Shown one piece after another: positions 74 to 36,906 of a stretch of 39,002 bases of DNA. Source of the stretch: a virus (Duplodnaviria; Caudoviricetes); the IMG/VR virus record IMGVR_UViG_3300020042_003012, positions 1 through 39,002 of that record; one strand, written 5' to 3'. The notes below the pieces were generated by a model. It did not search any database. It was not told where the DNA came from and saw only the letters and a program-made list of their open reading frames with translations. The translations under genes and the position numbers were made by a program. Numbering within the stretch: position 1 is the stretch's first letter; each line of letters starts with the position of its first letter.

Positions 74-304
74 AAACCAACCCCCCTACCCCCCTTAGTG
101 GCTACGCCATAGTACGAAAGTACTCAGAATTGAAGAAGAAGTACTGAAATAGTATACATTATACATATATATATAATATACTATAGTAATATATATAGTT
201 ATATAGTATATAGTTATATTATATCTTTATATATACTATAACCGGATACTATATATAGTTATATACTTATTATTATATATAATTACTAGTAACATCATAT
301 AGTT

Positions 305-323
305 ATTGAGAATGATTCTCATT
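305..323. promoter_or_regulatory. Fur box
   Basis: ATTGAGAATGATTCTCATT: perfect 7-1-7 inverted repeat TGAGAAT-G-ATTCTCA (307-321), matching the proteobacterial Fur consensus TGATAATnATTATCA with a symmetric T>G change. Confidence 0.7.
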
Positions 324-340
324 TAGATTCACAATAATAG

Positions 341-360
341 TTATCCACAGGTTATTAACA
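341..360 (+). promoter_or_regulatory. Tandem DnaA boxes
   Basis: TTATCCACA (341-349, perfect) followed by TTATTAACA (352-360, one mismatch to TTWTNCACA). Confidence 0.6.
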
Positions 361-379
361 ACTGTATATCCATACTGTA
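361..379. promoter_or_regulatory. LexA (SOS) box-like site
   Basis: aCTGTATATCCATACTGta versus consensus CTGT-N8-ACAG; one mismatch in the right half-site, canonical TA-rich spacer. Confidence 0.45.
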
Positions 380-433
380 GTACGTAGATATACAATATAC
401 ACTAATATTATATACATGCGCCCGCACGCACGT

Positions 434-449
434 AGCAATAATTGTGCCA
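434..449 (-). promoter_or_regulatory. Sigma54 (RpoN) -24/-12 element facing left
   Basis: Minus strand reads TGGCAC-AATTA-TTGCT, an exact match to TGGCAC-N5-TTGCW. Confidence 0.6.
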
Positions 450-472
450 TAATAACCCTTGTCTCAATAGGG

Positions 473-506
473 TTGTAAGGTTGGTGTAAGGTTGATCGGT
501 TACATT
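473..506 (+). promoter_or_regulatory. Early promoter P1 with an OmpR/PhoB-type direct repeat in place of the -35
   Basis: TGTAAG at 474 and 485 (11-bp period), 10-bp gap, then -10-like TACATT (501-506). Confidence 0.5.
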
Positions 507-568
507 TCAGTCATCGGTTCAGCACTACAAGGGTTACTAGTAACAGCAAGGGGTGAATAACCCCTAAG

Positions 569-597
569 TTGCAAAGGTTATCTAGTTATGCTAATAT
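569..597 (+). promoter_or_regulatory. Sigma70 early promoter P2
   Basis: TTGCAA-N17-TAATAT with extended -10 TG at 589-590. Confidence 0.6.
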
Positions 598-634
598 CGG
601 TGCATCGGTTGATTGATCGGGGTTGACCGGATGG

Positions 635-668
635 TTGTAAGTTTCATGTAAGGTTTACATGTTAACAT
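635..668 (+). promoter_or_regulatory. Early promoter P3 with an OmpR/PhoB-type direct repeat in place of the -35
   Basis: TGTAAG at 636 and 647 (11-bp period), 10-bp gap, then TG-n-TAACAT (-10 at 663-668). Confidence 0.5.
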
Positions 669-904
669 GCAACGCATCAAACAAGGAATACGTTCCCTTT
701 ATAAAACGTGTAGGAAAGCTTTGACTATGGCACGCACACTGTCCATACGAGTTCCTGAGCAGTGCAGTGGTGAAAACCACAGGTAAAACCCTTATGGCAT
801 AGGGGATATGTTACCAAGAAAACCTAGGGTTTTCTACAGTGTGTTACTAGTAGCACATTGTTCAAGCCTTAGTAAATCAAATCAAACTGTAAAAGGAATT
901 CAAA

Positions 905-1420
905 ATGTCATACGAAACAGAATTACGCAATGCATTGTCAACTTCAAAAGATGCGAAAGACGCTAGTCGCAATGCAGGTGAAGGCATATGGGCAAATTAT
1001 GTACGTGCTACATGCTATCCATATACACCGCATAACATGGAAGGACTGGATGCTACTCATAAGAATCTAGTAGCAACTCTCAATAATATCCGAGAGTTAA
1101 CTAAGGATGAGAAAAATAGTCTGCGGTCTGCCAAATGTGTGGTAGGCAAAGCCATTACTAATAACGTAGAGGTGTGGAAACGCACTGAAGATGGCGGCTT
1201 TGAACGTGACGAGAATGAGAATCCAATGCCCAAGGGTAAATCAGAATTGAATGAAGCGAAGACTGACTTCGATAGAATGATGGCATTCATCGAGCAAGCA
1301 AGCAAGAAATATGACAGCGACACACGTGAGCAGTTTACACGTGAGCAAATGTCATCCATCGCTGATGCATATGCAGCCCTTGCACATCGCATGGTGGAAG
1401 ACTACTCTGCAACTAACTAA
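905..1420 (+). CDS. First early protein, unknown function (171 aa)
   Basis: ORF with AAGGA RBS, first gene after the promoter cluster. Confidence 0.85.
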   Translation: MSYETELRNALSTSKDAKDASRNAGEGIWANYVRATCYPYTPHNMEGLDATHKNLVATLNNIRELTKDEKNSLRSAKCVVGKAITNNVEVWKRTEDGGFERDENENPMPKGKSELNEAKTDFDRMMAFIEQASKKYDSDTREQFTREQMSSIADAYAALAHRMVEDYSATN

Positions 1421-1428
1421 GTGAACAT

Positions 1429-1446
1429 GCCCCTAGAAATAGGGGC
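1429..1446 (+). terminator. GC-rich hairpin with GAAA tetraloop (weak terminator or RNA stability element)
   Basis: GCCCCTA-GAAA-TAGGGGC just after the stop, followed by TGTTACTAGTAACA rather than a U tract. Confidence 0.5.
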
Positions 1447-1477
1447 TGTTACTAGTAACATTAATCAAGGGGATAAC

Positions 1478-1687
1478 ATGGCACATGAATTCTTATCAAT
1501 CACTGAACGTTACACAATCACGTCACATGGTAATGGTTGGGGATATGAGGTGGAAGACAACATAACTAATGAGACGCTGTGGTTTCAAGATTATGATGCA
1601 GAGCAATTGCAAAAGGATACGAATAATTTCGAGGACGACGATGTACTGCGTCAACACTTTGAATCTTTATATATAAGGGGAACATGA
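1478..1687 (+). CDS. Small acidic early protein (69 aa, MAHEFLS...)
   Basis: ATG at 1478 preceded by AAGGGGA; the track's upstream start lies in the hairpin region. Confidence 0.75.
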   Translation: MAHEFLSITERYTITSHGNGWGYEVEDNITNETLWFQDYDAEQLQKDTNNFEDDDVLRQHFESLYIRGT

Positions 1688-1848
1688 TGTATACATTCGC
1701 TAACATGCTGCTATCTGTAGCTATCGCACTGGTAATTACCTATTGCATGTACACTATTGATGGGTACTATGCACTGACAACGTTACTAGTAATGGGCGGT
1801 GCACTGCTAGGTATGCAAATATCTGATGTATTAGCAAGGGGTAAGTAA
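1684..1848 (+). CDS. Small membrane protein, two hydrophobic segments (54 aa, MMYTFANMLLSVAIALVITY...)
   Basis: Manual translation; AAGGGGA RBS; ATGA overlap with the previous stop; not in the ORF track. Confidence 0.7.
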   Translation: MMYTFANMLLSVAIALVITYCMYTIDGYYALTTLLVMGGALLGMQISDVLARGK

Positions 1849-1967
1849 TGAAAAGAATTTCATATAAAAAGGTAGGCGGTTTACACTTTGTTAAACTGTT
1901 CCGGTTTGGGTTCTCATTCTATTGGAGCAAAACTAATAAAGGGGTCTGTCATCATGGATTTAATTGA
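1848..1967 (+). CDS. Small basic/aromatic peptide (39 aa, MKRISYKKVGGLHFVKLFRFGFSFYW...)
   Basis: Manual translation; TAATG coupling; AAGGGG RBS. Confidence 0.6.
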   Translation: MKRISYKKVGGLHFVKLFRFGFSFYWSKTNKGVCHHGFN

Positions 1968-2040
1968 TACTGTAGTAGTATTTTTGGCATGTACATATGT
2001 GGGTTGGTTCTTTTGGGAGGTGTGGAATGACAACGAATAG
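1954..2040 (+). CDS. Single-TM microprotein (28 aa, MDLIDTVVVFLACTYVGWFFWEVWNDNE)
   Basis: Manual translation; fills the gap between coupled ORFs; AAGGGG upstream. Confidence 0.45.
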   Translation: MDLIDTVVVFLACTYVGWFFWEVWNDNE

Positions 2041-2206
2041 AACGCTTGAATTCAAATCTTTCGCTGAAGCTGATGCAGTTATGCATGAGATAGAAGAATT
2101 CTTTGAGAGTACACCGGCTGATGAGGTGGTAGAAAACTGGTTAGATAGCGAGTATCATCGTATATTCGTTACCTATATGTACCCTGATGTAACAAAGGTG
2201 AACTGA
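2027..2206 (+). CDS. Small acidic early protein (59 aa, MTTNRTLEF...)
   Basis: GGAGG RBS before ATG 2027; stop overlaps the next start. Confidence 0.7.
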   Translation: MTTNRTLEFKSFAEADAVMHEIEEFFESTPADEVVENWLDSEYHRIFVTYMYPDVTKVN

Positions 2207-3927
2207 TGAACTATCTAGATGTAGTCAACTTTGAGACGTATGTCGCAGGTTGTGCTAGAAATGGTGGCATTAAGGTTGTGTGGGATACACCATCCAGTAC
2301 ACCACGTACTGATGGACGCATAATGTGGTTGCCATCCATTACTAGTACTACACCGGCTGAGTGGCTGACACGTATGCGTTACTATGTAAAGCATGAGACA
2401 AGCCATGTGCAATACAGTGACTTTGGCGTACTGAATAAGTACAAGCCTGTAGGGTTATTGGCACTGATTAATAACCTTATTGAAGACCATCGTATTGATT
2501 ATATTAACGATAGTCAGTATATGGGTGATGCAATTACTAGTAACAACTACTGGGTGTTGTATACAGATGACATTGTTAAGCGTATTGTATCTACTGATAC
2601 AGAACTAGCAGAGCAGCAGCGTGTTGTGTTGCCCTTGTTTGTGTGGGATGCAGCACTGCGTACATGGATTACTAATGCGTCAGAAACACGTGATGTAATG
2701 GCTAACATGCTAGATGATGATGGTATTGACAAGCTCCACAAGCTTGAGAAATACACTGATGAGTTACTAGTATTACGGGCTGATACAGCGTTAGATGTAG
2801 GTGAACGTGTGTATGACCTAGCTGTACGTATCTTAGCTGACTTGTTCGACGGTAAAGCTGAGGATTACAGTGATGAGGGTGATGAGAAGGGTGAGGGTGG
2901 CAGTGGTAAAGGTAAGGGTAAGGGTGATAAAGGTGCTGATGATAGCGGTGATTCTGAGGGTACAGGTGGCTCTGATGAGGATAAGCTTGTAAATGTAGAG
3001 AAGCTTATCAAAGCCATAGGGCATGAGCATAAGCCTAGCCGTACAGGTATACACCTTGTAATGAGTGGTGCTGATCTTGATGGTGCATACACTATCCCTC
3101 ATAAGGATGAGTACGTCATCATTCACTTCCCTGAGTTGCATAGAGTAGTACGTGGGCATACCGGCTATATGAAAGATGATAGGGTATCTAAGTACATTAC
3201 TAGTAACTCTAAGCCCTTAGCTAATCAGTTGCGTATGCGGTTGCAGACACGTAGCAGGGACAGGTATGAGTACGGATTAAAGCGTGGTAAGTTACACACA
3301 GGTAGCTTGCACAAGCTGTTATCAGGTGACACTGATGCTAGTACACGTGTATTCCGTAAGCGTATTGTAAGTGACACGTTAGATACTGCGGTTACATTGT
3401 TGGTGGATTGTAGCGGTAGTATGTCAGGTAACAAGTTTGAGATGGCATGTAGTGGTGCAGGTGCTATGGCAGAGGCATTGAAACCACTGAACATAGCATT
3501 CAATGTGCTAGGGTTTACCAATGTAGAGGGCAATGATGAGCCTATGATATGGGTGTTCAATGACTTCGGTGAACGTGTATCTACACCTGAGCTAGTGTCT
3601 AGATTCAAGACTGCTAGTGGCTGTCTGTGGGAGAATACAGACGGTGATGCGTTAGCATATGCGGCATATGTGTTAAGCTTACGTAGAGAAAAGCGTAAGG
3701 TGTTACTAGTATTGTCTGATGGTAGTCCAGCAGGTCGTGACTCACACGGTGACATTACAGCATACACAGCACGTGTAGTTAAAGACATTGAATCAAGTGG
3801 GGTAGATGTATATGGTATTGGTATTCTTGACGATAATGTGCGTCATTTTTATAAGAAACATGAAGTAGTTAACAACGTGGACAATCTTTCATCAACAATT
3901 CTTTCAGTCTTAGATAGGAGTATTTAA
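2206..3927 (+). CDS. CobT-like vWA-domain protein with N-terminal HExxH domain
   Basis: HETSH and IEDHRI motifs; acidic/Gly linker; C-terminal vWA MIDAS (DCSGS...T...SDG). Confidence 0.85.
   Translation: MNYLDVVNFETYVAGCARNGGIKVVWDTPSSTPRTDGRIMWLPSITSTTPAEWLTRMRYYVKHETSHVQYSDFGVLNKYKPVGLLALINNLIEDHRIDYINDSQYMGDAITSNNYWVLYTDDIVKRIVSTDTELAEQQRVVLPLFVWDAALRTWITNASETRDVMANMLDDDGIDKLHKLEKYTDELLVLRADTALDVGERVYDLAVRILADLFDGKAEDYSDEGDEKGEGGSGKGKGKGDKGADDSGDSEGTGGSDEDKLVNVEKLIKAIGHEHKPSRTGIHLVMSGADLDGAYTIPHKDEYVIIHFPELHRVVRGHTGYMKDDRVSKYITSNSKPLANQLRMRLQTRSRDRYEYGLKRGKLHTGSLHKLLSGDTDASTRVFRKRIVSDTLDTAVTLLVDCSGSMSGNKFEMACSGAGAMAEALKPLNIAFNVLGFTNVEGNDEPMIWVFNDFGERVSTPELVSRFKTASGCLWENTDGDALAYAAYVLSLRREKRKVLLVLSDGSPAGRDSHGDITAYTARVVKDIESSGVDVYGIGILDDNVRHFYKKHEVVNNVDNLSSTILSVLDRSI
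3827..3855 (+). promoter_or_regulatory. Internal sigma70-like promoter upstream of the AAA gene
   Basis: TTGACG-N17-TATAAG. Confidence 0.35.
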
Positions 3928-3928
3928 C

Positions 3929-4975
3929 ATGGCAACAGAGATCAACGACAAAGTAGCTAAGGCTATCGCAGCACACTTAGGTAAAGTACCTACTACACCT
4001 GTAGCTGAGGCAGCACCTGATACAATCATTAAGTCAGTGGTTGTAGGTGATGGTCAGAAACTATTCAGTAAGGTGTTTGGCTATACACCTAGCTTCGGTG
4101 ACTTTGCTGTCACTGTATTGCCTAACAACACTGATGCAGAGGTAGCACGTCTTGTACCTAGCGCAGACCCTGACTATGTAGTGCAGAAGCAAGAGGCAGC
4201 ATTACTAGTAGCAGGTATCGAAGATGGTGACAAGAGCCTACTCACAGGGCCTACAGGTAGCGGTAAATCATCGCTGGTTAAGTATGTATGTGCTAAGCTT
4301 AATCGTCCCTTCATTCGTATCAACATGTCAGGTGATGTTGAGAGTGCGTCACTGTTTGGTATGCTCACTGCTAGTGTGGGTGTAGGTACTGAGTGGAAAG
4401 ATGGTGCTATCACTGAGGCATGTAAGTATGGTGCATTGTGCCTTGTAGATGAGTGGGAACTGATGCCCCCTGAGATTGCTATGGGTATGCAGAACTTGTT
4501 AGAAGACGGTGGTTATCTCTATCTCAAGGAAAAACCCGGCACATCTGCTGACCGTACAGTTAACCCTGATGCACACTTCCGTCTGGTGTTTGCAGGTAAC
4601 ACTGTTGGACAAGGTGACACTACAGGTGCATTCTCTGGTGTAGGTATTCAGAACAGTGCAACTATCGACCGATTCACTAACACTATCCGTCTTGCATATC
4701 TCGACCAGAAGCATGAGGTAGCCATCATTACTAGTAAGAGTAACATCGCTAAGGATGTTGCAACTAAGATGGTGCGTGTTGCAGCACTGGTGCGTAATGC
4801 GTATGACTCAGGTAAGATTGGTCTTACCATGTCACCACGTACACTGATTAACTGGGCACGTAAGTGTCAACGTTATGATGTTAAGTTTGCATTGCAGACT
4901 GCATTCACTGAGAAGCTTAACGCTGACGACGTTAAGTCTGTGCAAGAATTCTACACCAAGGTATTTGGTGAGTGA
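3929..4975 (+). CDS. CobS/MoxR-family AAA+ ATPase
   Basis: Walker A GPTGSGKS, Walker B LVDE, FRLVFAGN, ATIDRF, SPR motifs; adjacent to the vWA partner. Confidence 0.9.
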   Translation: MATEINDKVAKAIAAHLGKVPTTPVAEAAPDTIIKSVVVGDGQKLFSKVFGYTPSFGDFAVTVLPNNTDAEVARLVPSADPDYVVQKQEAALLVAGIEDGDKSLLTGPTGSGKSSLVKYVCAKLNRPFIRINMSGDVESASLFGMLTASVGVGTEWKDGAITEACKYGALCLVDEWELMPPEIAMGMQNLLEDGGYLYLKEKPGTSADRTVNPDAHFRLVFAGNTVGQGDTTGAFSGVGIQNSATIDRFTNTIRLAYLDQKHEVAIITSKSNIAKDVATKMVRVAALVRNAYDSGKIGLTMSPRTLINWARKCQRYDVKFALQTAFTEKLNADDVKSVQEFYTKVFGE

Positions 4976-4981
4976 TGTATC

Positions 4982-5001
4982 GGCAGACCGCAAGGTCTGT
5001 C
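4982..5001 (+). terminator. Hairpin with GCAA tetraloop after the AAA gene
   Basis: GGCAGACC-GCAA-GGTCTGTC; no U tract. Confidence 0.5.
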
Positions 5002-5022
5002 ATCATTAATTATGGAGGTTTT

Positions 5023-5205
5023 ATGGCTGACATTACAAAGTGTAAAGGTGCTGATGAGAAGCGTAATTTAATTTGTCCTATGCGGGACAATTGTTACCGA
5101 TTCACAGCAAAATCAAATGAATTTAGACAATCGTATTTTACTGTAGTACCATACGAAGCACCTGAGTGTAGTGAATTTTGGGATAACAGAGGGGATAATG
5201 AATGA
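5023..5205 (+). CDS. Small Cys-containing hypothetical protein (MADITKC...)
   Basis: GGAGG RBS before ATG 5023; four Cys (C..CP...CYRF...C). Confidence 0.75.
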   Translation: MADITKCKGADEKRNLICPMRDNCYRFTAKSNEFRQSYFTVVPYEAPECSEFWDNRGDNE

Positions 5206-6044
5206 CTACATTATATGGACAAAAGGCGTTGAATGAGCTTACTAGTAATGCACCCGACTACGAAGATATTGACGAAGGACATTCTGCTAAATACAATCAT
5301 GCTACTTGTCATATGGGTGTGGACACACGTAAACGGTTTGGTGTTAAGCATGTAGACGATGCATATCTGTGGCATTGTTTTAATTGTGGTGATAGCGGTT
5401 ATTATAGGACACGTGAAACAGTTAGCAGAATAAAGTTAATGACGGGCACTAGTGAAGACACTCATATAATTCGCCACTTAAGTGAGAAGTTTAAGCATTT
5501 TTCACAGAGAGACTTATATAAGTTTAATATTATGGGTCAGTTGTGGTTAGGTCAGTATGGTTTTAATGGTGATATGGTAGAAGAATATAATATTCGTGAG
5601 ATAGATGATGGTATTGTATTACCTTTTGGTGGATATACTGAAACTAATCGTGGTTATCAATTGCGTAGGTATGATAAGAAACCTAAATATATTACTAGTG
5701 TACCTAGAAGTATGAGTAAGTCACATTACATTAGAAGTACTGATACACGTATTGGTAGCACATTAGTAGTTGTAGAAGACTTATTAAGTGCATATAAGTT
5801 ACACTATGCAGGTTATTCTACATTGTGTTTGTTAGGTACTAAACTTGATACAGGTATACTGCCTGACATACTACTTGACAACCACAGTAGAGTTGTGTTA
5901 TGGTTAGACGACGATGTAGCGGGGCATGAAGGTGCTGTTAAAATATACAAAGAACTTAGTCCAGTATTTAAACACATTACTAGTATCAACATGCTTCAAC
6001 CAAAAGAAATATCTTTAGACAAGCTTAGAGAAATGGAATTGTAA
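5202..6044 (+). CDS. DNA primase (Zn finger plus TOPRIM)
   Basis: H..C...WHCFNCG zinc ribbon; TOPRIM VVEDLLSA and LDDD; precedes the helicase. Confidence 0.85.
   Translation: MTTLYGQKALNELTSNAPDYEDIDEGHSAKYNHATCHMGVDTRKRFGVKHVDDAYLWHCFNCGDSGYYRTRETVSRIKLMTGTSEDTHIIRHLSEKFKHFSQRDLYKFNIMGQLWLGQYGFNGDMVEEYNIREIDDGIVLPFGGYTETNRGYQLRRYDKKPKYITSVPRSMSKSHYIRSTDTRIGSTLVVVEDLLSAYKLHYAGYSTLCLLGTKLDTGILPDILLDNHSRVVLWLDDDVAGHEGAVKIYKELSPVFKHITSINMLQPKEISLDKLREMEL
5875..5904 (+). promoter_or_regulatory. Internal sigma70-like promoter upstream of the helicase
   Basis: TTGACA-N18-TATGGT with extended -10 TG. Confidence 0.4.
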
Positions 6045-7309
6045 TGTCATATGATATTGATTTACTAACTGTAGTTAGTGAGAAAGATACGTATAATAGA
6101 TTTAAAGAACATGTAAAGAAACACAATGTATCCTCTATTACATTAGATATATTTAATGTATTAGGTGAATATTGGGACAACTACCCTACTAGAACTAAGG
6201 TAGATGTAAATGAGTTTCATACATTCTTTAATATTGTACGTGGTAAGAAGTTAAAAGACCCTGCGCTATATGAGCAAGCATTCATGTGGTTAAGTCGGAG
6301 CATGGAGGTTGAGCCTCCAATCGTTAAAGATATTCTGGCTAAGTTAATTGAGGTTGACTATGCCACACGTATCTATGATGTGTGTATGAAGATTGGTACA
6401 GGGTCAGGTGGTGAGCTTACATCCATTGAGCCTATGCTTAACGATTACAAGAAAGAGATAGGTGCAAGTGTTGAAAAATCTGATGTATTCGTTAGTCCTA
6501 GTCTGTCTTATCTATCTAAGATTGTGGCTACAGGGGGTCTTGAATGGCGACTTAAAGAGTTGAATGTAGCACTAGGCCCGTTGCGTAAGGGTGATTTCAT
6601 TATCGTAGCAGCACGACCTGAGAGTGGTAAGACTACATTCGTAGCTAGTGAAGCTAGTTACATGATGAGCCAACTACATGATGATGAGCATGTCATATGG
6701 ATTAACAATGAGGAATCAAGTACCAAGGTTATGATGCGTGTGATACAGGCATACAATGGTGTAACAACAGGTGAACTACTATCTAACCCATCGAAGTATG
6801 AGACAGAGTTTACTAGTAACGGTGGTGAAAGATTTTTAGTGTTGGATGATGATAGCGGTATCAAGAGTGTTAATAAAATTAGCACACTGTTTGCTGAATT
6901 CAAGCCCGGACTTATTATCTTTGACCAACTTGATAAGGTGCATGGGTTTAGTAACGAGTCACGTGATGACTTACGCATTGGTAAACTGTACGAATGGGCT
7001 AGAGACTTAGCTAAAGAGTATTGTCCAGTGATTGCAATATCACAGGTGGATGGTACAGGTGAGGGTGAGAAGTGGATTCAAATGAATCAACTACGTGGTA
7101 GTAAGACAGACAAGATTGGAGAAGCAGATGCCATCATCACCATTGGTAAGAGTAACGAACCTGCGATGGATTTACAACGTTTTATCCATGTCCCTAAGAA
7201 CAAACTATTCGGAGGTAAGGATACCCTTGAAGCCCACAGACACGGATGCTTTGAAGTAGAGATTGAACCATCAAAAGCGAGGTACAAATCAAAATGGGCA
7301 ACACGCTAG
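6044..7309 (+). CDS. DnaB-like SF4 replicative helicase
   Basis: ARPESGKTT (H1), NNEE (H1a), IIFDQL (H2), IAISQ (H3), LRGS...EAD (H4), KNK. Confidence 0.92.
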   Translation: MSYDIDLLTVVSEKDTYNRFKEHVKKHNVSSITLDIFNVLGEYWDNYPTRTKVDVNEFHTFFNIVRGKKLKDPALYEQAFMWLSRSMEVEPPIVKDILAKLIEVDYATRIYDVCMKIGTGSGGELTSIEPMLNDYKKEIGASVEKSDVFVSPSLSYLSKIVATGGLEWRLKELNVALGPLRKGDFIIVAARPESGKTTFVASEASYMMSQLHDDEHVIWINNEESSTKVMMRVIQAYNGVTTGELLSNPSKYETEFTSNGGERFLVLDDDSGIKSVNKISTLFAEFKPGLIIFDQLDKVHGFSNESRDDLRIGKLYEWARDLAKEYCPVIAISQVDGTGEGEKWIQMNQLRGSKTDKIGEADAIITIGKSNEPAMDLQRFIHVPKNKLFGGKDTLEAHRHGCFEVEIEPSKARYKSKWATR

Positions 7310-9207
7310 TACTTGATTTAGAAACTACAATGGATTGTCCAGTTGGTAACAACAAGGCTAACCCTATGTGGATGGGTAATAAAATTATTGCCTCTGGTAT
7401 TAAATGGCTACGTGACGGGGCAGATGTACATATATGTTATGCAACTAAAGGAGTAGATACAGAACCTTTGTTAGATGAAATTAGTTTGGCTGCTTTAGTT
7501 GTAGGTCATAACATTAAGTTTGATTTGTTATACATCTACCGCAATACTAGTAATGTCTTGCCACGTGTGTGGGATACACAACTTGCAGCATATCTTTTAT
7601 CAGGACAGAGACATTTATATGCAAGTCTTGATGAGTTAACTGCTGAGTATATAGGCGACCATGCGTTGAAGGATGACAAGATTAAGGAGTATTGGAAAGC
7701 AGGTGTACGTACAGAAGATATACCCGGTGGTGAGTTGTTGGCCTATCTACGTGCAGACGTTAACAACACTGCGACTATCTTTGAGAAGCAATGGGAAGAA
7801 GCAGAACAGTTGGGTATCATGCCGTTGATGTTCACACAGATGGATGCACTACGTGCCACCATTGAGATGAACCGTAATGGTATGTCTCTGAATTGGTATT
7901 ATGTCGATCAAATGTGTAAACAATATGGTGAGGTAGTCAGAGGTACGGCAGAGACAATCAGACTTCTTGTAGGTGATGTTGACTACATGAGTCCTAAGCA
8001 ATTGTCATTGTACTTTTTTGGTGGTGAGGAGAAATATGTAGAACGTGAGTTGGTTGGTGAGTACAAGAATGGTAAGCCTAAGTACAAGAACGTAGACAAG
8101 GTACGCACTGTTAAGGGTAAATATATACCTACTATTGAGGCTGGTAAGAGTGGCTATTACAGTGTAGATGATGCAGTGCTTAAGGGACTGTCATCATCAG
8201 GTGATTTGTTTGCTGCTCAGTTATTAGTAATGCGTGATGCAAAGAAGATTAAGGAGACTTACTATGAAGGATTGAATGACTTACGCTTCCCTAGTGGTTT
8301 GATATACCCTAATCTAAATCATTGTGCAACTAAGACAGGTAGATTGTCTGCTACTAATCCTAACTTACAGAATCAAACTGATTCAGGTAATGTTAAGAGA
8401 GCCTACGTGAGTAGGTTTGTAGGCGGTAAGATACTAGAGCTTGACTATTCACAACTTGAGATGATAGCGTTAGCGTACTTAGCTAATGACAAACAGCTTA
8501 TCGAAGACATTAACAATGGCAGAGATATGCACAAAGAACTGTACAAAGGAATGTATGGACGCTACCCTACAGATGTAGAACGTAAACCATTCAAGCGGTT
8601 TAGTTTCTTGCTTGTGTATGGTGGAGGAGTTACAACTCTTATGGCACAGAGTGGATGCGATAGAGCAACAGCTAAGAAGTTTATTAGTACATTCTACACT
8701 AGGTATAAAGGAGTAAAGGAATACCATGAGTCAATAGTTAAGAAAGCAAATGATGACTGTGTAGTAAGTTATGATGAGAGTAAGAGTGGGCCTCAATACA
8801 CATACTTTCATTCTAGTCCTACAGGTAGACATTACTTATTTAATAAATATGCTAATGAATACAAGAAAGGAGAACTTACATTTAGTCCAACAGAACTAAA
8901 GAACTGGCCTATACAGGGCTTTGCAACAGGTGACGTAGTGCCTATGATGGTAGGTATCTTGTTACGTGAGTTAGAGAGTGCAGATATATCTGGTCAGGCA
9001 TTATTAGTAATGACTGTGCATGATAGCGTAGTACTTGACACAACTCAAGAAGTATGTTATAAAGCAGCTTCTATAGCAAAGAAGACACTGGAGAATGCAC
9101 CAATGTATTTGAAACAGTACTTCGACATAGACTTTCCATGCCAACTAAAGGTTGGTGTAGAAGTAGGTAAAAATTGGCAAGACAAAACAGAACTGGAGTT
9201 AATATGA
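7294..9207 (+). CDS. Family A DNA polymerase with 3'-5' exonuclease
   Basis: Exo motifs DLET, GHNIKFD, YLRAD; TGRLS...PNLQN; motif A DYSQLE; motif B KRFSFLLVYGG (Phe at the 762-equivalent position); motif C VHDS. Confidence 0.95.
   Translation: MGNTLVLDLETTMDCPVGNNKANPMWMGNKIIASGIKWLRDGADVHICYATKGVDTEPLLDEISLAALVVGHNIKFDLLYIYRNTSNVLPRVWDTQLAAYLLSGQRHLYASLDELTAEYIGDHALKDDKIKEYWKAGVRTEDIPGGELLAYLRADVNNTATIFEKQWEEAEQLGIMPLMFTQMDALRATIEMNRNGMSLNWYYVDQMCKQYGEVVRGTAETIRLLVGDVDYMSPKQLSLYFFGGEEKYVERELVGEYKNGKPKYKNVDKVRTVKGKYIPTIEAGKSGYYSVDDAVLKGLSSSGDLFAAQLLVMRDAKKIKETYYEGLNDLRFPSGLIYPNLNHCATKTGRLSATNPNLQNQTDSGNVKRAYVSRFVGGKILELDYSQLEMIALAYLANDKQLIEDINNGRDMHKELYKGMYGRYPTDVERKPFKRFSFLLVYGGGVTTLMAQSGCDRATAKKFISTFYTRYKGVKEYHESIVKKANDDCVVSYDESKSGPQYTYFHSSPTGRHYLFNKYANEYKKGELTFSPTELKNWPIQGFATGDVVPMMVGILLRELESADISGQALLVMTVHDSVVLDTTQEVCYKAASIAKKTLENAPMYLKQYFDIDFPCQLKVGVEVGKNWQDKTELELI
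9035..9063 (+). promoter_or_regulatory. Strong internal sigma70 promoter upstream of the putative SSB gene
   Basis: TTGACA-N17-TATAAA with extended -10 TG. Confidence 0.6.
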
Positions 9208-9710
9208 GTTATATTATTGAGAACATCATTGATAAAGAAGTTAATACCAAGTTTGGCCCTAAGAAAGCCTATTCGGTATTCGCAAATGGCGAACGCTATG
9301 GGTATGGATTCAAGAAGCCTACGTTCTCTATTGGAGATGAGGTTGACTTTCAATTCACAGATAGTACCTATGGTAAACAGGTAGATGAAAAGAGTGTACG
9401 GTTGCTTAGTAAGGGTAATCCCACACCACCCCCTAGCACGTCTGCTACAGCCCCTTCTAAGCCCTCCTATGGGTCGCCAAAGGTATTCCCCATCCCTGCC
9501 CTGCATGGAGATAGAGCCATTGTTCGTCAGAACTCTATTAGCAATGCAGTTAAGTTGATTACAGATAGCGTTAAGCCCACTGACAAATCTAATTGGGAAT
9601 CATTGGCTAATGAAGTTATTGAGATAGCACGTATGTTTGAAGCCTACTCATGTGGTGACTTAGATATGGAACAAGCTATCGCTATGGCTGACACTAAGGC
9701 TGATGAATGA
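9204..9710 (+). CDS. Putative ssDNA-binding / OB-fold protein
   Basis: GGAG RBS before ATG 9204; beta-rich N-domain (KEVNTKFG), Pro/Ser linker, acidic end; follows the polymerase. Confidence 0.5.
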   Translation: MSYIIENIIDKEVNTKFGPKKAYSVFANGERYGYGFKKPTFSIGDEVDFQFTDSTYGKQVDEKSVRLLSKGNPTPPPSTSATAPSKPSYGSPKVFPIPALHGDRAIVRQNSISNAVKLITDSVKPTDKSNWESLANEVIEIARMFEAYSCGDLDMEQAIAMADTKADE

Positions 9711-10531
9711 AAACAATTGACACGTTAGTAGCTGACATGTACTCAGTGGTATCTGGTGGCATTCCTAATGCTACTAGTAACACGAATGTATCTGTCAGTT
9801 ACGACAAGTGGTTTACACCACGAGGTAGTGAACGTGACGAGAAGGTATTGTACTTTAGTGAGGTAGGCACACCATGCCCACGACAGCTATGGTACAAATA
9901 CAATGCACCTGAGATTGCCACTAAACCTGATGGTAATCTATTGCTTAAATTCTTCTATGGTGATATACTTGAGGAACTGGTACTGAACGTAGCAGAGAGT
10001 GCAGGGCACAAAGTAGAAGCTAAGCAGGAACGTGTGTTGTATGAAGTGGGTGGTGGTTGGTATGTTCGTGGACGTATTGATGCCGTAATTGATGGGGTAG
10101 TGGTTGACGTTAAGAGTGTTACAAAGTACTCCGAAGAAAAATTCAAAGGAGGACTTGTCGATGACCCATTTGGTTACTATCAACAACTAAACGGATATGC
10201 TGCTGCTCTCAATAATGACACTGCTGGTTTTGTTACTATACAAAAAGAGTTAGGTCACATCAACTACTACCCTATCCAAGTGGATAGAGGTTTATTTGCA
10301 CAACAGGCAGACTTTGCTGTTGAGACAGTTACTAGTAACATTGCTGAGATTCCTAGACTCGAAGCAGTGCCACAAAGTAAGACGAGTAAGAATAAGAAAC
10401 TATGCACAGCGTGTAGCTATTGTTCTTTTAAAGGCGAGTGCTGGCCTGAGATGCGTACATTCTTGTACAGTCATGGGCCAGAATTTTTGGTAGATGTAGT
10501 GGATGTTCCACGTGTAATGGAGGTAGTATAA
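9707..10531 (+). CDS. PD-(D/E)XK Cas4-like exonuclease
   Basis: CPRQLWY, GRIDA..DVKS, QxxxY, C-terminal CTACSYC.....C Cys cluster. Confidence 0.85.
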   Translation: MKTIDTLVADMYSVVSGGIPNATSNTNVSVSYDKWFTPRGSERDEKVLYFSEVGTPCPRQLWYKYNAPEIATKPDGNLLLKFFYGDILEELVLNVAESAGHKVEAKQERVLYEVGGGWYVRGRIDAVIDGVVVDVKSVTKYSEEKFKGGLVDDPFGYYQQLNGYAAALNNDTAGFVTIQKELGHINYYPIQVDRGLFAQQADFAVETVTSNIAEIPRLEAVPQSKTSKNKKLCTACSYCSFKGECWPEMRTFLYSHGPEFLVDVVDVPRVMEVV

Positions 10532-10800
10532 TGTTTGGAATTCTTAATAGAAAAATTAAAGGTGCATCAGCACGTAAGTTTTTGGGTACAGATAATAACG
10601 CATACATCCAGTGGCAAGTAGACCATGATGGTGATGCTAGGCTTTCTGTCCATGATGGTCGTGAAACTGTTCACTTTAGTGAGTGGATTGCACATAACGA
10701 CCAAAAGGATGCGGCTGCGTTTGATAAGAAGATGGTTCTTATTGTTGATGAGATCAATGCAATGCGTAAAGCCATGAAAACCAAGACGGTTAAGAAATGA
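10531..10800 (+). CDS. Hypothetical protein
   Basis: Coupled ORF with GGAGG RBS. Confidence 0.75.
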   Translation: MFGILNRKIKGASARKFLGTDNNAYIQWQVDHDGDARLSVHDGRETVHFSEWIAHNDQKDAAAFDKKMVLIVDEINAMRKAMKTKTVKK

Positions 10801-11567
10801 AAATACTAGTAATACCTGATTGTCAAATTAAGGAAGGTGTTCCTACTGACCATCTGGTATGGGCAGGTAAGGCTATCTGTGAATATAAACCTGATGTTGT
10901 GATTAACATGGGTGACTTTGCAGATATGCCTAGCCTATCTACACATGATAAAGTTGGTAGCAAATACTTTGAGGGATTACGGTATAAGAAAGACATTGAC
11001 GTAGCTAAAGAAGCTATGGCTAAACTTCTTGCACCTATCAAAGATATGCAGAATAAGCAGAAGAAAAACAAGGAGAAGGTTTATAAGCCACGTATGGTGA
11101 TGCTTATGGGCAACCATGAGAACCGCATAACTCGTGCTGTAAACAACAATCCTACACTAGAAGGGCTTATATCAACTAAAGATTTGTGTTACGAAGACGA
11201 TTGGGAAGTGCATGAGTTTCTACATCCTGTGTTTATTAATGGTGTTGGTTTTAACCATTATTGGCCTGTTGGGGCGATGGGACGACCTGCGAGTAGTGCG
11301 GCTACTATTATTAATAAGCTACATATGTCTTGTGTTGCTGGTCACCAACAAGGTAAGCAAGTTGCCTACAGTAAACGAGCAGATGGTAAACCAGTATGTG
11401 CTATAATTGCGGGTAGTTATTATCTACATGATGAGAGCTACATGGACAAGCTTAGCAATAGACACTGGCGAGGTTTGGTTGTGTTGAATGAGGTTGAGGA
11501 TGGTCATTTCGATGAGATGTTCTTGAGCATTGAATATCTTGGGAGAAAATATGAACTACTCGGATAA
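10797..11567 (+). CDS. Calcineurin-like metallophosphoesterase
   Basis: PDCQ, GDFAD, GNHE, NH and GHQQ metal-binding motifs. Confidence 0.85.
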   Translation: MKILVIPDCQIKEGVPTDHLVWAGKAICEYKPDVVINMGDFADMPSLSTHDKVGSKYFEGLRYKKDIDVAKEAMAKLLAPIKDMQNKQKKNKEKVYKPRMVMLMGNHENRITRAVNNNPTLEGLISTKDLCYEDDWEVHEFLHPVFINGVGFNHYWPVGAMGRPASSAATIINKLHMSCVAGHQQGKQVAYSKRADGKPVCAIIAGSYYLHDESYMDKLSNRHWRGLVVLNEVEDGHFDEMFLSIEYLGRKYELLG

Positions 11568-11784
11568 GCTTCTTGCAGTAACTAGATTTGTGGAGGATAA
11601 TTTTGATGACCCAGTTGAACTAATAATTGCGTTAGGTGTATCAGTTGAAGACATAATCAAACTATTACCTGACGTACTTGTTGCAAACTATACTAACTTT
11701 TATCCGACACATGACTACACAGAAGAAGACACAATTGAAGAAGACGAAGCAGACCTTGGAACTGGAGAAGATTGGGAAGACTAG
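11551..11784 (+). CDS. Acidic hypothetical protein
   Basis: GGAG RBS before ATG 11551; very acidic C-terminus. Confidence 0.7.
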   Translation: MNYSDKLLAVTRFVEDNFDDPVELIIALGVSVEDIIKLLPDVLVANYTNFYPTHDYTEEDTIEEDEADLGTGEDWED

Positions 11785-11872
11785 GAAGCGTGCTGTTATT
11801 AATAACGCACAGACTAAAGAGTGGAATAAACAATTGCAAGACTTTAAACAAAGGGAACAAAATGAAATTTAA
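11711..11872 (+). CDS. Basic hypothetical protein overlapping the previous gene
   Basis: ATG 11711, MTTQKKTQLKK...; fills the otherwise empty 11785-11861 gap; weak RBS. Confidence 0.45.
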   Translation: MTTQKKTQLKKTKQTLELEKIGKTRKRAVINNAQTKEWNKQLQDFKQREQNEI

Positions 11873-12116
11873 ATTTGAACTTGAAGAATATGGCGTTAAA
11901 CACATAGTTGAGGGTGATCTTGGTGAGTGGACTACATATGCAGATGTAGCACAAAACTTTGCTAACCTGATTAGCGGTGCGTATGGATATACAATTTATA
12001 TTGATGCAACTACAGAAAACGGTAAGCCTCTTACAGAAGAAGAATTGTGGGACAAGTTGGCTGAACAAGAAGAAGAACCTGTCAAGTCAAAGAAACGCAA
12101 AGCTAAGTCCGAGTAA
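11862..12116 (+). CDS. Hypothetical protein (MKFKFELEE...)
   Basis: AAGGGA RBS before ATG 11862. Confidence 0.7.
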   Translation: MKFKFELEEYGVKHIVEGDLGEWTTYADVAQNFANLISGAYGYTIYIDATTENGKPLTEEELWDKLAEQEEEPVKSKKRKAKSE

Positions 12117-12119
12117 AGC

Positions 12120-12139
12120 AATACCCCTTCGGGGGTGTT
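12120..12139 (+). terminator. Hairpin with cUUCGg tetraloop
   Basis: AATACCCC-TTCG-GGGGTGTT directly after the stop; no long U tract. Confidence 0.5.
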
Positions 12140-12153
12140 AAGGAGAAGAACAC

Positions 12154-12339
12154 ATGACGCCCGATTTACAACAAATATTGCATGAAATAACAGTGCGGCT
12201 AACAAAACTTGAAGCACAGCGCACATGGGTAGGGCTGACGGTTGAAGAAATAGCGGCTTGTTGCATGGAGTCCACAACAACACAGCTTAGTTTTTATAAC
12301 GCTATCGAAGCCAAACTGAAGGAGAAGAACAATGGCTAG
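12154..12339 (+). CDS. Small phage protein with WVGLTxEE...AIEAKLKEKN motif
   Basis: AAGGAG RBS; motif recalled from small proteins of betaproteobacterial phages (not verified by search). Confidence 0.75.
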   Translation: MTPDLQQILHEITVRLTKLEAQRTWVGLTVEEIAACCMESTTTQLSFYNAIEAKLKEKNNG

Positions 12340-12478
12340 TTGGCTTATTGCAATGATAGGTGTTGTGTACACAATAGTAGCTATCCAGTTACTAGTAACA
12401 GGCAAGACAGGACTAGGCATAGCCTTCATTGGTTATGCACTAGGTAATGTAGGCTTATACATGGAAACTAGATTATGA
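12332..12478 (+). CDS. Small two-TM membrane protein (48 aa, MASWLIAMIGVVY...)
   Basis: Manual translation; AAGGAG RBS; ATGA overlap with the next gene; not in the ORF track. Confidence 0.75.
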   Translation: MASWLIAMIGVVYTIVAIQLLVTGKTGLGIAFIGYALGNVGLYMETRL

Positions 12479-12693
12479 AAACAATTATACATGTTAACCA
12501 ACATGTTATTAAATCTAACCGCAAGAACAATGAAGTTAATCCTGTGTTAACTGTTAAGACGTATAAAACAAATACATACGGGTCTAGCGTGTCCATTGCA
12601 GGGCCTTGCAAAGTAGTGTATAATCCAACTAAACCACTATCTTGTGGTGCACATGTGTGGATTGAAACTGAATCAGAGGTAATTGTTTCGTGA
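12475..12693 (+). CDS. Conserved phage hypothetical protein (IHVNQH...PLSCGAHVWIET)
   Basis: Coupled ORF. Confidence 0.75.
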   Translation: MKTIIHVNQHVIKSNRKNNEVNPVLTVKTYKTNTYGSSVSIAGPCKVVYNPTKPLSCGAHVWIETESEVIVS

Positions 12694-13082
12694 GAAACAA
12701 CGGTGAGTGGACAGAGGGTCGCTATCGTAGCTTCATTACTTCTACTCTGCGTGGTGGTATGCGTAGATGGCCTCCTAAATGGGTTGCACTTAAAACTGCA
12801 TTCGTAGGTAAGAAGATCAATAAGAAGACAGGTAAGCAAGCAATGCACTATAAGTGTGCTGCATGTAGTAAAGACTACGTATCTAAAGATGTTCAAGTAG
12901 ACCATGTTAATCCAGTAGTTGACCCCACTACTGGTTTTGTGTCTTGGGATGTATACATTGATAGGTTGTTCTGTGAAGGTGAGAACCTACAAGTGTTATG
13001 CTCTACATGTCATAAGAAGAAAACAGCTAAGGAGAAAGATGATGCAAAACGAGGAAGAAGCGTGGTTACACCACACGATTAA
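12690..13082 (+). CDS. HNH endonuclease
   Basis: CxxC...VDHVNP...NLQVLCxxCH. Confidence 0.85.
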   Translation: MRNNGEWTEGRYRSFITSTLRGGMRRWPPKWVALKTAFVGKKINKKTGKQAMHYKCAACSKDYVSKDVQVDHVNPVVDPTTGFVSWDVYIDRLFCEGENLQVLCSTCHKKKTAKEKDDAKRGRSVVTPHD

Positions 13083-13224
13083 AGCGTTTGATGAGATTGT
13101 GTGTTCAGGTAAGTATGGCCCTTTGTTCTATAAGATGTTGAGTAATGATGCTAAACAAATCTTATTTAACATGAAGATGTTAGAAGAAAACAAGATGGAG
13201 ATAAATCATGTCAACGGGATTTAG
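13039..13224 (+). CDS. Hypothetical protein (MMQNEEEAW...)
   Basis: AAGGAG RBS before ATG 13039. Confidence 0.65.
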   Translation: MMQNEEEAWLHHTIKAFDEIVCSGKYGPLFYKMLSNDAKQILFNMKMLEENKMEINHVNGI

Positions 13225-13342
13225 ATTTATGGGAGGTCTTGCATTTGGGTTTGAATTAAATGCAGGGCCGGGATTATATTTATGTATCTACTTAGGTATT
13301 GTAGAGATTGCATTTTTTAATGAAGATAAACTGGAGGATTAA
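13208..13342 (+). CDS. Small hydrophobic protein (44 aa, MSTGFRFMGG...)
   Basis: Manual translation; GGAG RBS; TAATG coupling to the RNR start. Confidence 0.6.
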   Translation: MSTGFRFMGGLAFGFELNAGPGLYLCIYLGIVEIAFFNEDKLED

Positions 13343-16473: not shown

Positions 16474-16485
16474 TACTAGTAACAG

Positions 16486-25755: not shown

Positions 25756-25764
25756 TATATACTC

Positions 25765-27975: not shown

Positions 27976-27976
27976 A

Positions 27977-29117: not shown

Positions 29118-29118
29118 A

Positions 29119-34088: not shown

Positions 34089-34101
34089 TTCTTATTTCCT
34101 T

Positions 34102-35628
34102 TTAGTAGGCTACGCCACCGTATTTTGAATTAAAAGCAACCACATTTGTTCGTTTACCCCATGTCCGATTAGATATAGGAGCTTTACAAATTTCAATACA
34201 AGAAGCTAATGCATCCTTAATATCATCGTGTTCAGGATTATTCATCATTAATTCTTCTTCTAATGTTTGACAATTACCACCTTTATAATGCCAGATTTGA
34301 TTATTATTATATCTAGGTTCTAGAATGGTAGCAATACGTTCAGCTTTACGCATATTCTTAGGTGGGTTATATTCATCAATTGTAAATACAATGTTTTGAC
34401 TACGCATATAATCTTTAAATTGTCCTACAATAAGACGCTGTGCAGCTACTACTTCACAACGCATCTTTTTAAATTTCCACTTACGATATACTAATTCAGC
34501 CTTATCATACATTACAGATATTTTATTTGTTTTAAATCTATCAATATCTAAAACATAAAAGTTATTATCTTCATCTACTCCAACCACCATGATAACAGTA
34601 TAGTCAGAGTTTGCGCCAATAGAATAAGCAAAATCCATTGCAGAATAGATATGTAGAAGTTTGTCTCCAAAGTACCACGCTCCACTAAAGTTTTCAATCT
34701 TATCACGTTCATAGTAGTTGAATCTACTACGGTCGATTAGTTGTGTTTCTACAGCATTAGGATTGTTATAATATTGAGCATAGAACTGTGTTACGTCCAG
34801 ATATTTAGCCTTCTTACGTGCTAGTTCTCTAGCATCAAATCCAAATACTTTACTATCTGTTCTACGTTGTTTAGGCCAAAGGAACTCTCCTCCAGTTTCT
34901 ACAACACGTTCAAATACTTCATAAACAGGATTCTCAATCTCTGTCTCATCGTCATCAGACATGTACGTTTCAGTCATCTCCATCATGTCTTTATACAAAT
35001 CACCGGGATGATAGCGAGTACCTACAGCCCACTCTCTAGCACCTGTAGATTCAATTGAAGATAGTTGTGAGTAGAATGATCTAACCTGATCTCTACCTAG
35101 CTGTGTATAAGCATTGTCAGGCACTACAACGTCATCTAGCACAGCTACATTACAATGTAACCCTGTGACGTTAGCTGTAATACCTGCTGCTTTAATTGTA
35201 GCATCACGAACACCTTCTGCCTTACGCTTAGGGTGATCTACAGAAATCTCATCCATAGACCAACGCTCTCGTTTACCTTCCATCTCATTAACCATTTCAG
35301 GCCAATAGAATCTGTATATATCTGATAAGAATATATCCTTAACAGCTTTAAGTTGTTTCTCTGCTAAGTTAGCTGTAGCAGACACATACAGTACAGTTGT
35401 CTCAGGGTGCTTTGTAACCCACCAAGCAACCCTATAAGCAATCATAGCACTCTTTTGATGGTCACGTGGCAACAGGACAAGTTGGTTGTCTTTAGCGTCT
35501 TCTCTGCCCCACCATGAACACAATTCCTCATGCACTGCACCAAGCATACGATGAGGAGCTACAAGTTTGATAAACGTTAATAAGTCAGCTTCTGCTGCCT
35601 GTCTAACCAGTTCTTTTTCAGTCACCAC
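34102..35628 (-). CDS. terL: Terminase large subunit
   Basis: PRDHQKS Walker A variant, VLDD Walker B, GTRY, nuclease MDFA...SDYT...HDDIKD. Confidence 0.92.
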   Translation of the reverse strand: MVTEKELVRQAAEADLLTFIKLVAPHRMLGAVHEELCSWWGREDAKDNQLVLLPRDHQKSAMIAYRVAWWVTKHPETTVLYVSATANLAEKQLKAVKDIFLSDIYRFYWPEMVNEMEGKRERWSMDEISVDHPKRKAEGVRDATIKAAGITANVTGLHCNVAVLDDVVVPDNAYTQLGRDQVRSFYSQLSSIESTGAREWAVGTRYHPGDLYKDMMEMTETYMSDDDETEIENPVYEVFERVVETGGEFLWPKQRRTDSKVFGFDARELARKKAKYLDVTQFYAQYYNNPNAVETQLIDRSRFNYYERDKIENFSGAWYFGDKLLHIYSAMDFAYSIGANSDYTVIMVVGVDEDNNFYVLDIDRFKTNKISVMYDKAELVYRKWKFKKMRCEVVAAQRLIVGQFKDYMRSQNIVFTIDEYNPPKNMRKAERIATILEPRYNNNQIWHYKGGNCQTLEEELMMNNPEHDDIKDALASCIEICKAPISNRTWGKRTNVVAFNSKYGGVAY

Positions 35629-35894
35629 TTAACCTTATCTGCCCAATATGCAGCACTCATCTTACCTTTGGCAATGTTGCTTGCATGACGAGCTTTGAAA
35701 CTCTCTCTACGCTTACGTGCAGCATCAGATTCACCTTCTGTCTTAGGGCTACCTGACACACCCTTTTGACCAAATCGAATGAGTTTTTCTTTGTCACCTA
35801 CTTTAGCCAACACTGCATGACTCTTAGTAGGATGGCTAGGTGTACGCTTAGGTTTATTATATCCAGAAAACGATTCTGAACCTTTCTTAATCAT
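35622..35894 (-). CDS. Small basic protein (KLIRFGQ...RRESFKARH...SAAYWA)
   Basis: Probable start MIKKG at 35894 with GGAG RBS. Confidence 0.75.
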   Translation of the reverse strand: MIKKGSESFSGYNKPKRTPSHPTKSHAVLAKVGDKEKLIRFGQKGVSGSPKTEGESDAARKRRESFKARHASNIAKGKMSAAYWADKVKW

Positions 35895-36097
35895 ACTTCT
35901 TCTCCAATTACTTCTGGTAAACATTTATAACTAACTGTCAAGTTAGGACGTTCGTTCATCATGTACAGTTCTAATGCTTTGTAATAGGCAACTTGCATAC
36001 ATGCTTCTTTTGTCTCATGCCTAGTACGGGGTTTATCCACAATAGGCTCAATACACTCATTTATTGCTAAGCATAATACAAATTCTATTACAAACAT
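35891..36097 (-). CDS. Hypothetical Cys-containing protein
   Basis: Coupled ORF. Confidence 0.65.
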   Translation of the reverse strand: MFVIEFVLCLAINECIEPIVDKPRTRHETKEACMQVAYYKALELYMMNERPNLTVSYKCLPEVIGEEV

Positions 36098-36109
36098 AAT
36101 GTACCTTTG

Positions 36110-36340
36110 TTAACGGTGTCTAGCTGTTTTCTTAGCTATGTTTTTAGGTTGTGCAACAAACTGTTTTCCTTTAGCATTACCTTTAGCCTTAGCTTTGTTA
36201 GTAGCTGCTTTTTCTGCTGGAGACAAGTCTTTCCACGCTGAATCAGGTAAATAACGTTTCTTACCTTTAGATGGTTTTCCATCTGATGTACGCCACTTTT
36301 GTGCAGTCCAATCCTTTAAAGATTGTTGCGGGTTCTTCAT
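36110..36340 (-). CDS. Small basic protein (DUF5872-like, C-part)
   Basis: PQQSLKDWTAQKWRT...KRYLP motif. Confidence 0.65.
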   Translation of the reverse strand: MKNPQQSLKDWTAQKWRTSDGKPSKGKKRYLPDSAWKDLSPAEKAATNKAKAKGNAKGKQFVAQPKNIAKKTARHR

Positions 36341-36444
36341 TTCATTTTCTTAGCGCATTTGCCCATTGCCTTGCATTTACTTGGTGTAGGGCATCCAGCA
36401 CAAGGCTTGAATGATTTAGTTGATTTAATTTCAATGATACGCAT
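36337..36444 (-). CDS. Cys-rich basic peptide (35 aa, MRIIEIKSTKSFKPCAGCPTPSKCKAMGKCAKKMK)
   Basis: Manual translation; AAGGAG RBS; ATGA overlap with the next gene; not in the ORF track. Confidence 0.7.
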   Translation of the reverse strand: MRIIEIKSTKSFKPCAGCPTPSKCKAMGKCAKKMK

Positions 36445-36457
36445 AAGTTACTCCTTG

Positions 36458-36643
36458 TTAAGATTTATAACCACCACCTTTAGCTTTGTATTCTTTAGCT
36501 AAAAGTTGTGCTTTCCTTGCCGACCATTCACCGGGGTCGCCTCCCTTACTACCTGCTTTAATACGCTCAAACAACGCTTTACGCATTGTAGGTTTAGTGT
36601 AAACACCTGCTTGATTAACTTTAGATTTAGTGGTTTTCTTCAC
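36458..36643 (-). CDS. Small basic protein (DUF5872-like, N-part)
   Basis: YTKPTMR...GGDPGEWSARKAQLLA..YK..GGGY motif. Confidence 0.7.
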   Translation of the reverse strand: MKKTTKSKVNQAGVYTKPTMRKALFERIKAGSKGGDPGEWSARKAQLLAKEYKAKGGGYKS

Positions 36644-36906
36644 TTCATCTTCCCTGTTTTAGTGCGTGAGAAACTCCGATTGTTACTCTTACTAGTAACA
36701 CGTAAATTACTACGACTATTGCCACCACCTTTACTAAGCGGTTTCTTATGGTCTACATCTTTACCATCACCCTTACTTACTTTACCTTCATCCATAAGTT
36801 TACGCCTAGCACCATTACGTTTAGCCCTATCTTTAACAACAGAGGGCTTACCATCATATGCTTGTTGCTTCTTATAATCTCTTTTTCCTGCGGTCATGTA
36901 AGGCAT
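36640..36906 (-). CDS. Small HNH endonuclease (packaging-region type)
   Basis: DVDHKKPLSKGG.N...NLRV....NRS. Confidence 0.8.
   Translation of the reverse strand: MPYMTAGKRDYKKQQAYDGKPSVVKDRAKRNGARRKLMDEGKVSKGDGKDVDHKKPLSKGGGNSRSNLRVTSKSNNRSFSRTKTGKMK

Follow-up and report, generated by a model that had tools for sequence, protein, structure and literature searches.

Why should a phage write one short palindrome again and again into its own genes? The question is raised by a virus record of 39,002 bases (the window; 85% complete, source type freshwater metagenomes), in which the 8-base word TACTAGTA recurs along the whole genome. This word is best read as a site bound by a protein, and the sequence comparisons point to a phage protein as its reader rather than a host one. 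The probability that this reader is gp1, the product of the first early gene, is estimated here at about 0.65. The layout of the sites, with an even spacing and a polar density gradient, is the main new fact; it was absent from the preliminary description of this DNA.

That description spoke of at least 31 exact copies between 284 and 36697. The count is indeed 31, and dinucleotide shuffles of the window gave a mean of 1.82 and a maximum of 6, with none of 100 reaching 31. Variant cores occupy gaps of the grid formed by the exact copies, which brings the window to 39 sites:

284..36697, no strand: 31 exact TACTAGTA cores, the first 16 starting at 284, 535, 845, 1450, 1784, 2340, 2535, 2765, 3198, 3704, 4203, 4729, 5240, 5978, 6811 and 7545, the remaining 15 at 9772, 10330, 10804, 12390, 13395, 14610, 16474, 17004, 17448, 19868, 22021, 24547, 26262, 28916 and 36690
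1156..21473, no strand: eight well-flanked variant cores (C to T), at 1156, 8222, 9002, 11309, 11797, 13941, 20689 and 21466

Twenty-six exact sites lie inside annotated open reading frames (ORFs) and five are intergenic (284, 535, 845, 12390, 16474); site 1450 is probably intergenic too because the ORF of a relative starts further down. Three codon-aware null models average 2.8, 3.5 and 1.6, each with 0 of 400 trials reaching the in-gene count of 27, which includes one site twice via an overlapping ORF. Frame usage is as had been described, with 20 sites read as xTS, six as L/I-L-V and none as TAC-TAG.

Pooled over 76 related loci, the full word is the dyad RTTAYTARTAAY in which C and T are tolerated symmetrically, with a core TAYTARTA and the preferred flanks RT and AY. 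Among the 31 exact copies of the window, 18 are extended as TTACTAGTAA and 7 as GTTACTAGTAAC; the 12-mer initially put forward as the motif covers only 7 of the 31 and has to give way to the degenerate dyad. In the 76 loci C-to-T changes at the third position of the core are enriched about 60-fold, and so are the G-to-A changes that mirror them. TTATTAGTAA is present 95 times and TTACTAATAA 124 times, compared to about 2 expected, and other inner changes occur 0–4 times. Sites with only T and no C are likewise enriched (52 vs 1.2). The asymmetric variant of the word shows no strand bias in six genomes (19 vs 22). This symmetric degeneracy, together with the soft flanks, fits a dimeric binder as far as the word itself can tell. 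The avoidance of CTAG that had been invoked as a backdrop does not apply to the window, where CTAG is not depleted (164 copies). A Chi-like function was considered and rejected, the word being palindromic and AT-rich; three Chi-like words that were checked occur 0–2 times. In phage ICBM1 (L078) the top enriched 8-mers are GC-rich, CCCAGCGC (9 vs 0.3) and CCACCGCC (8 vs 0.3, seven of them on a single strand of the late arm), and are perhaps Chi-like words or coding repeats. A full-text search of the literature yielded no phage array of TACTAGTA among the matches listed. The literature searches also turned up nothing on the word, gp1 or such a grid, and they missed the papers on the phiC31 repeats as well.

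Does selection act on the DNA or on the encoded proteins? The word is enriched in 75 of 76 helicase-related loci, and where the amino acid is conserved, synonymous bases are kept at 1150 of 1414 positions within sites (81%) and at 13301 of 29718 elsewhere (45%), a comparison whose rows are related and which is not an independent-sample test. In the helicase gene, sites at alignment columns 240 and 256 replace each other: of 53 sequences 29 carry one, 22 the other, two neither and none both. On the tree this swap needs four changes, at least three of which are forced, and the polymerase gene re-tiles its sites in a similar way. Synonymous conservation and the swapping of neighbouring sites without coexistence therefore indicate that selection acts on DNA position, and these alignments suggest that each interval retains a single site. 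The earlier proposal of DNA-level selection on a dedicated cis-element is thus borne out by the codon null models, by the conservation at synonymous positions that it suggested examining in relatives, and by the site swapping. In most of the replication genes the phage bends its codon choice to the needs of a DNA code.

The layout of the sites adds to this. The window has two convergent arms that switch near 16.5 kb, with rightward genes up to about that point (early genes, CobT, CobS, primase, helicase, polymerase, ribonucleotide reductase and sigma factor) and leftward genes after it (virion, terminase and lysis). At the left end the gaps between sites are 251, 310, 311, 294 and 334 bp; they measure 470–830 bp across the replication genes and reach 2.5 and 7.8 kb on the late arm. 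This widening from the early end gives a Spearman coefficient of 0.73 in the window (p 1.5e-7) and of 0.67, 0.42, 0.52, 0.25 and 0.26 in five near-complete relatives. The density pooled over the six genomes falls in successive intervals as 2.07, 0.97, 0.97, 0.93, 0.57, 0.47, 0.27, 0.17 and 0.05 per kb and the fall carries on across the strand switch, whereas eight control palindromes average less than 1 per 30 kb in the same genomes. In loci that span the genome junction, sites are sparse immediately ahead of the early end and numerous immediately beyond it. Between 2.2 and 14.7 kb the coefficient of variation of the gaps is 0.32, against 0.94 for random placement (0 of 5000). No link between sites and gene starts is apparent (8 of 27 sites lie within 70 bp of a start, 5.0 expected, p ~0.10), and the density of sites is lowest over the capsid, portal and terminase genes near the start of the late arm.

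The candidate reader is encoded at the left end, where the following features are found:

905..1420, plus strand: gp1, the first early gene, 171 aa, all-helical, of an uncharacterised family, with the variant site at 1156 inside it
845..852, no strand: site 60 bp upstream of the gp1 start, with a counterpart at about -52 to -69 in most main-clade loci
474..676, plus strand: two early promoter-like units, starting with TGTAAG-N5-TGTAAG at 474 and 636

The site at 845 is a candidate autoregulatory operator, and the two promoter-like units likely drive gp1. Sites recur at about -60, +251 and +545 relative to gp1 in most main-clade loci, the internal one being present in 20 of 22 gp1 genes. The gp1 family counts 182 relatives (16 representatives at 50% identity). 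Its invariant residues include K18, R22, R34, K67, K70, R74, K77, K82, K110 and K112; Lys and Arg abound among them around the motifs KNSLRSAK and PKGKSEL. The predicted model is helical with a predicted local distance difference test score (pLDDT) of 82. Modelling of two copies gave a score of 0.57, with 0.00 for the best of three controls; the mark used for such scores is reached by 20 of 30 solved homodimers and by 1 of 23 single chains. With a contact agreement of at least 81% and a pLDDT of at least 75, the dimer model supports a predicted homodimer formed through the C-terminal helices (interface at about residues 120–167), in which the basic N-terminal domains stay free; this bears on dimer formation, not on DNA. 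No sequence match of gp1 was found in Pfam, PHROG or PDB, nor in any cultured phage searched, and its matches in BFVD are only uncharacterised phage proteins. The best hit of a structure search (VIA) had a Z of 6.1 over 65 residues (root-mean-square deviation 2.1). Two candidates for homology were dismissed, namely T5 A2 (0.4%) and the phiC31 repressor c, for which hhalign gave 0.9% and 0.2%, next to an Atlas feature score of 0.80 and 0.77.

The presence of gp1 was compared with that of the word. All 12 gp1-bearing records tested are enriched for it, L279 weakly (5 vs 1.3), and the distant L280 has four sites in 2 kb. In G007 the word takes the form TTAYYRRTAA and in G006 it has other flanks, so that distant members of the gp1 family are, by their sequences, associated with a tuned form of the word. 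Viral contigs were also scanned independently for paired sites; of the 109 loci obtained, 25 had at least five cores, and 12 of these belong to the main clade. Seven of the other 13 were inspected and comprised repeat-rich genes and the phages G164, G165 and G169. In G169 a distant gp1 (E 2e-25) immediately precedes CobT and CobS, and RTTAYTARTA occurs 27 times vs 0.9 expected, although the structural genes of this phage are not homologous to those of the main clade, no match being found across the structural arm. The two phages closest to G169 by terminase have no gp1 and word counts of 1 and 2. ICP2 and PQ867845 possess CobS and CobT and neither gp1 nor the word, and MEP402, ICBM1, ctOsX528 and tf have no gp1 and no strong enrichment. 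In total eight complete comparison phages without gp1 are not strongly enriched, with the unrelated G164 as the exception. The enriched fragment G167 starts past the gp1 position.

Two neighbouring genes accompany gp1:

2206..3927, plus strand: CobT-like protein, found after gp1 in all gp1 loci that extend far enough
3929..4975, plus strand: CobS-like AAA+ ATPase, paired with CobT

The CobT-like protein is a possible partner of gp1 and the CobS-like ATPase a possible remodeller. The former contains an HExxH motif (HETSH), and the pair CobT and CobS (2206–4975 in the window) comes after gp1, in loci of sufficient length, even in very distant phages. In L280 a tRNA-like stretch (1030–1310, by eye) lies between the gp1 homolog and CobT.

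Several observations weigh against gp1 as the reader, or against the generality of the layout. G164 has 14 copies of TACTAGTA (1.7 expected) and no gp1 match, and the loose core is in mild excess in MEP402 (21 vs 12.5), ctOsX528 (15 vs 8) and ct2os315 (16 vs 6), which also lack gp1. In G169, where gp1 and the word are both present, no gradient is seen (Kolmogorov–Smirnov p 0.47), which could be explained if this phage has no fixed ends. In G004 and G005 the gradient misses significance by Spearman (p 0.09 and 0.13), and no site lies beside gp1 in G006. gp1 matches no known DNA-binding fold (Foldseek against the PDB, none at E 0.001). The core of the word barely changes while gp1 diverges to less than 30% identity, and distant gp1 loci are scarce. 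The independent lineages are few (one main clade plus G006, G007, G169, L279 and L280), and a shared host could explain the co-occurrence of gp1 and the word.

If gp1 is the reader, it would bind the palindrome oligonucleotide RTTACTAGTAAY over scrambled DNA. Being made first, it would dock on the RTTAYTARTAAY sites as the DNA enters the cell, presumably left end first in view of the position of the early genes, and site density would then be highest where the DNA arrives first and gp1 is scarcest. From each site gp1 may spread or bridge, which would be why one site per interval matters. Its coat could shield the phage DNA from host silencing or nucleases and mark it as self, while the -60 site would let gp1 limit its own synthesis. 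That a predicted gp1 homodimer docks on the evenly spaced grid and would coat and organise or shield the entering DNA is a tentative proposal, to which we give somewhat less than even odds.

A different role for the same protein has to be considered, in which gp1 binds the sites as a transcription repressor or roadblock of the stoperator type that shuts the early promoters and tapers expression along each arm. The sites that flank the early promoter units and the one at about -60 of gp1 agree with such a role, as do the low density over the capsid, portal and terminase genes and the cluster of TACTAGTA at the early-region start of G164. It would not lead one to expect independence from gene starts, nor even spacing and one-for-one swaps, since roadblocks should be additive, and the Cluster A stoperators are asymmetric and oriented (PMC4351075). 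Even spacing and one-for-one replacement suggest a constraint of reach, and coating or shielding is therefore favoured; repression or roadblock is an unlikely role for gp1, though one to be reckoned with. Less probable still is a reader from the host, a DNA-binding protein already in the cell when infection begins, which the phage would recruit through the word to protect or anchor its DNA on entry. Such a factor needs no synthesis, which would suit a gradient from the entering end. The near constancy of TAYTARTA over very divergent phages also agrees with it, and so do the clusters of TACTAGTA at early-region starts in the unrelated G164 and G165. In G164 (72.8 kb; L324 5968–9564, record 13626–29674) the word has CT/AG flanks, and seven copies cluster with widening gaps, some beside TTGACA; in G165 a similar cluster lies at 18.0–20.3 kb, with no gp1 match. 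However, the flanks vary by lineage, the presence of the word follows gp1 in the comparisons made, and of 151 genomes from a candidate host family only 19 contain the 12-mer, mostly as one copy, the host itself being unproven. A scan of prokaryote genomes with a 14-mer gave 120 loci, nearly all single matches and none similar to the window. Many of these fall in one conserved Flavobacteriaceae gene, which we take to be that of ribosomal protein S17.

Two further readings came from the preliminary description. A programmed nick site, as in tf and LUZ24-type phages, where one strand is cut during packaging, would account for the TACT-R shared with the tf consensus TACT/RTGMC and for a left bias, since 11 of 14 tf nicks lie in the left half of a two-arm genome (PMC3517423, PMC11780129). 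All 14 tf nick words are on one strand (14 vs 0), whereas the present word is a dyad without strand bias, and cleavage of both strands at its centre would break the molecule. Furthermore, the word follows an early gene and not the packaging module, and only one match to TACT/RTGMC or WACTRTGAC is present in the window, which makes nicking very improbable. The last reading, a base modification such as methyl-C that labels phage DNA as self, would explain why either C or T can stand at the third core position of each strand, as if a 5-methyl group were read. Yet the graded flanks are unlike enzyme sites, sites that contain no C are enriched too, and a PHROGs scan found no methyltransferase or other modifying enzyme among the 51 proteins of the 85% complete record. 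On this sequence evidence a modification mark is unlikely, and it is the least probable reading of all.

The widest form of the gp1 proposal is that a lytic phage builds a sequence-programmed chromatin, in which a new-fold dimer, made first, would dock on a self-written grid whose spacing suits the order of DNA entry, and in which CobS/CobT may do the loading or stripping; this would hide the genome from host defences and tell phage from host DNA. As a whole this is speculative and rather doubtful. What can be built on is an array with measurable rules (even spacing, one-for-one replacement and a density that grades across the strand switch), accompanied by a small candidate protein that matches no known fold and tracks the word, so that the question becomes one of a direct binding assay. 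If true, a short dimer that reads a 10–12 bp site rare in bacterial chromosomes could be a useful tool.

The window itself is a Zobellviridae-like freshwater podophage by its capsid and terminase, which are closest to Zobellviridae; the best capsid match is 47.5%, to cobaviruses, and the terminase is 57% identical to that of MEP402. No integrase or repressor family was found among its 51 proteins in the PHROGs scan, and its sigma factor and endolysin matches pointed to no host. Two large internal virion proteins (16951–25222) are only about 25% identical to those of G002, unlike the portal and capsid (97–98% identical), and the swapped genes still carry palindrome sites. In relatives the promoter units (474–505 and 636–670) have the TGTAAG tandem box ahead of a TATAAT-like element, and they recur in most relatives aligned; the box resembles the 11-bp repeat of the OmpR/PhoB family. 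Between these promoters and gp1 lies a conserved structured RNA (678–805), with compensatory changes at 10 of 31 predicted pairs in six relatives and no Rfam match; it is ribozyme-like by impression only. A very AT-rich TATA-repeat tract (140–350), followed by a DnaA-box-like word at 341, is a candidate origin or terminal region. The word AATGTATAC recurs at 46, 152, 1689 and 12951 and may serve the phage sigma factor encoded at 15224–15733 as a promoter element.

How does the array compare with known systems? Phage phiC31 has 15 copies of TACTCACGTGAGTA (TACT-N6-AGTA dyads), and its conserved inverted repeats are bound by repressor c. These share with the present word the genome-wide dyad and the TACT...AGTA half-sites, but they have a six-base spacer, lie mostly between genes and serve a temperate phage, and gp1 does not align with c. 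The nick sites of tf and LUZ24-like phages also consist of a short, left-biased word with a TACT start in the genes of a two-arm podophage. According to PMC3517423 and PMC11780129 they are asymmetric, on one strand and present in 8–14 copies, whereas the dyad studied here has about 40; the array is therefore not of the nick-site family despite the shared left bias. In the case of the Cluster A stoperators, too, one phage protein has numerous genome-wide sites, genes included, but as outlined in PMC4351075 these sites are oriented with transcription and serve lysogeny, unlike an unbiased dyad. The closest known system is that of the Cluster O mycobacteriophages, which according to PMC4351075 contain more than 30 unoriented 17-bp dyads (TGTTCGG-N3-CCGAACA) per genome, denser toward one end, partly in genes and with a predicted dimeric binder, in phages for which no stable lysogens were found and with no function assigned. 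About one third of those sites lie in genes compared to about four fifths here, and the present word is shorter (8–12 bp), degenerate and evenly spaced, shows compensated turnover and is tracked by a candidate reader family. By sequence, Cluster O thus has the same kind of array but a different element, with another word and, in that text, no reader named. End-biased dispersed dyad arrays in lytic phages have previously been reported without function or reader. The array described here is a real and strongly selected element, a variant of this known but unexplained kind, and it comes with a candidate reader.

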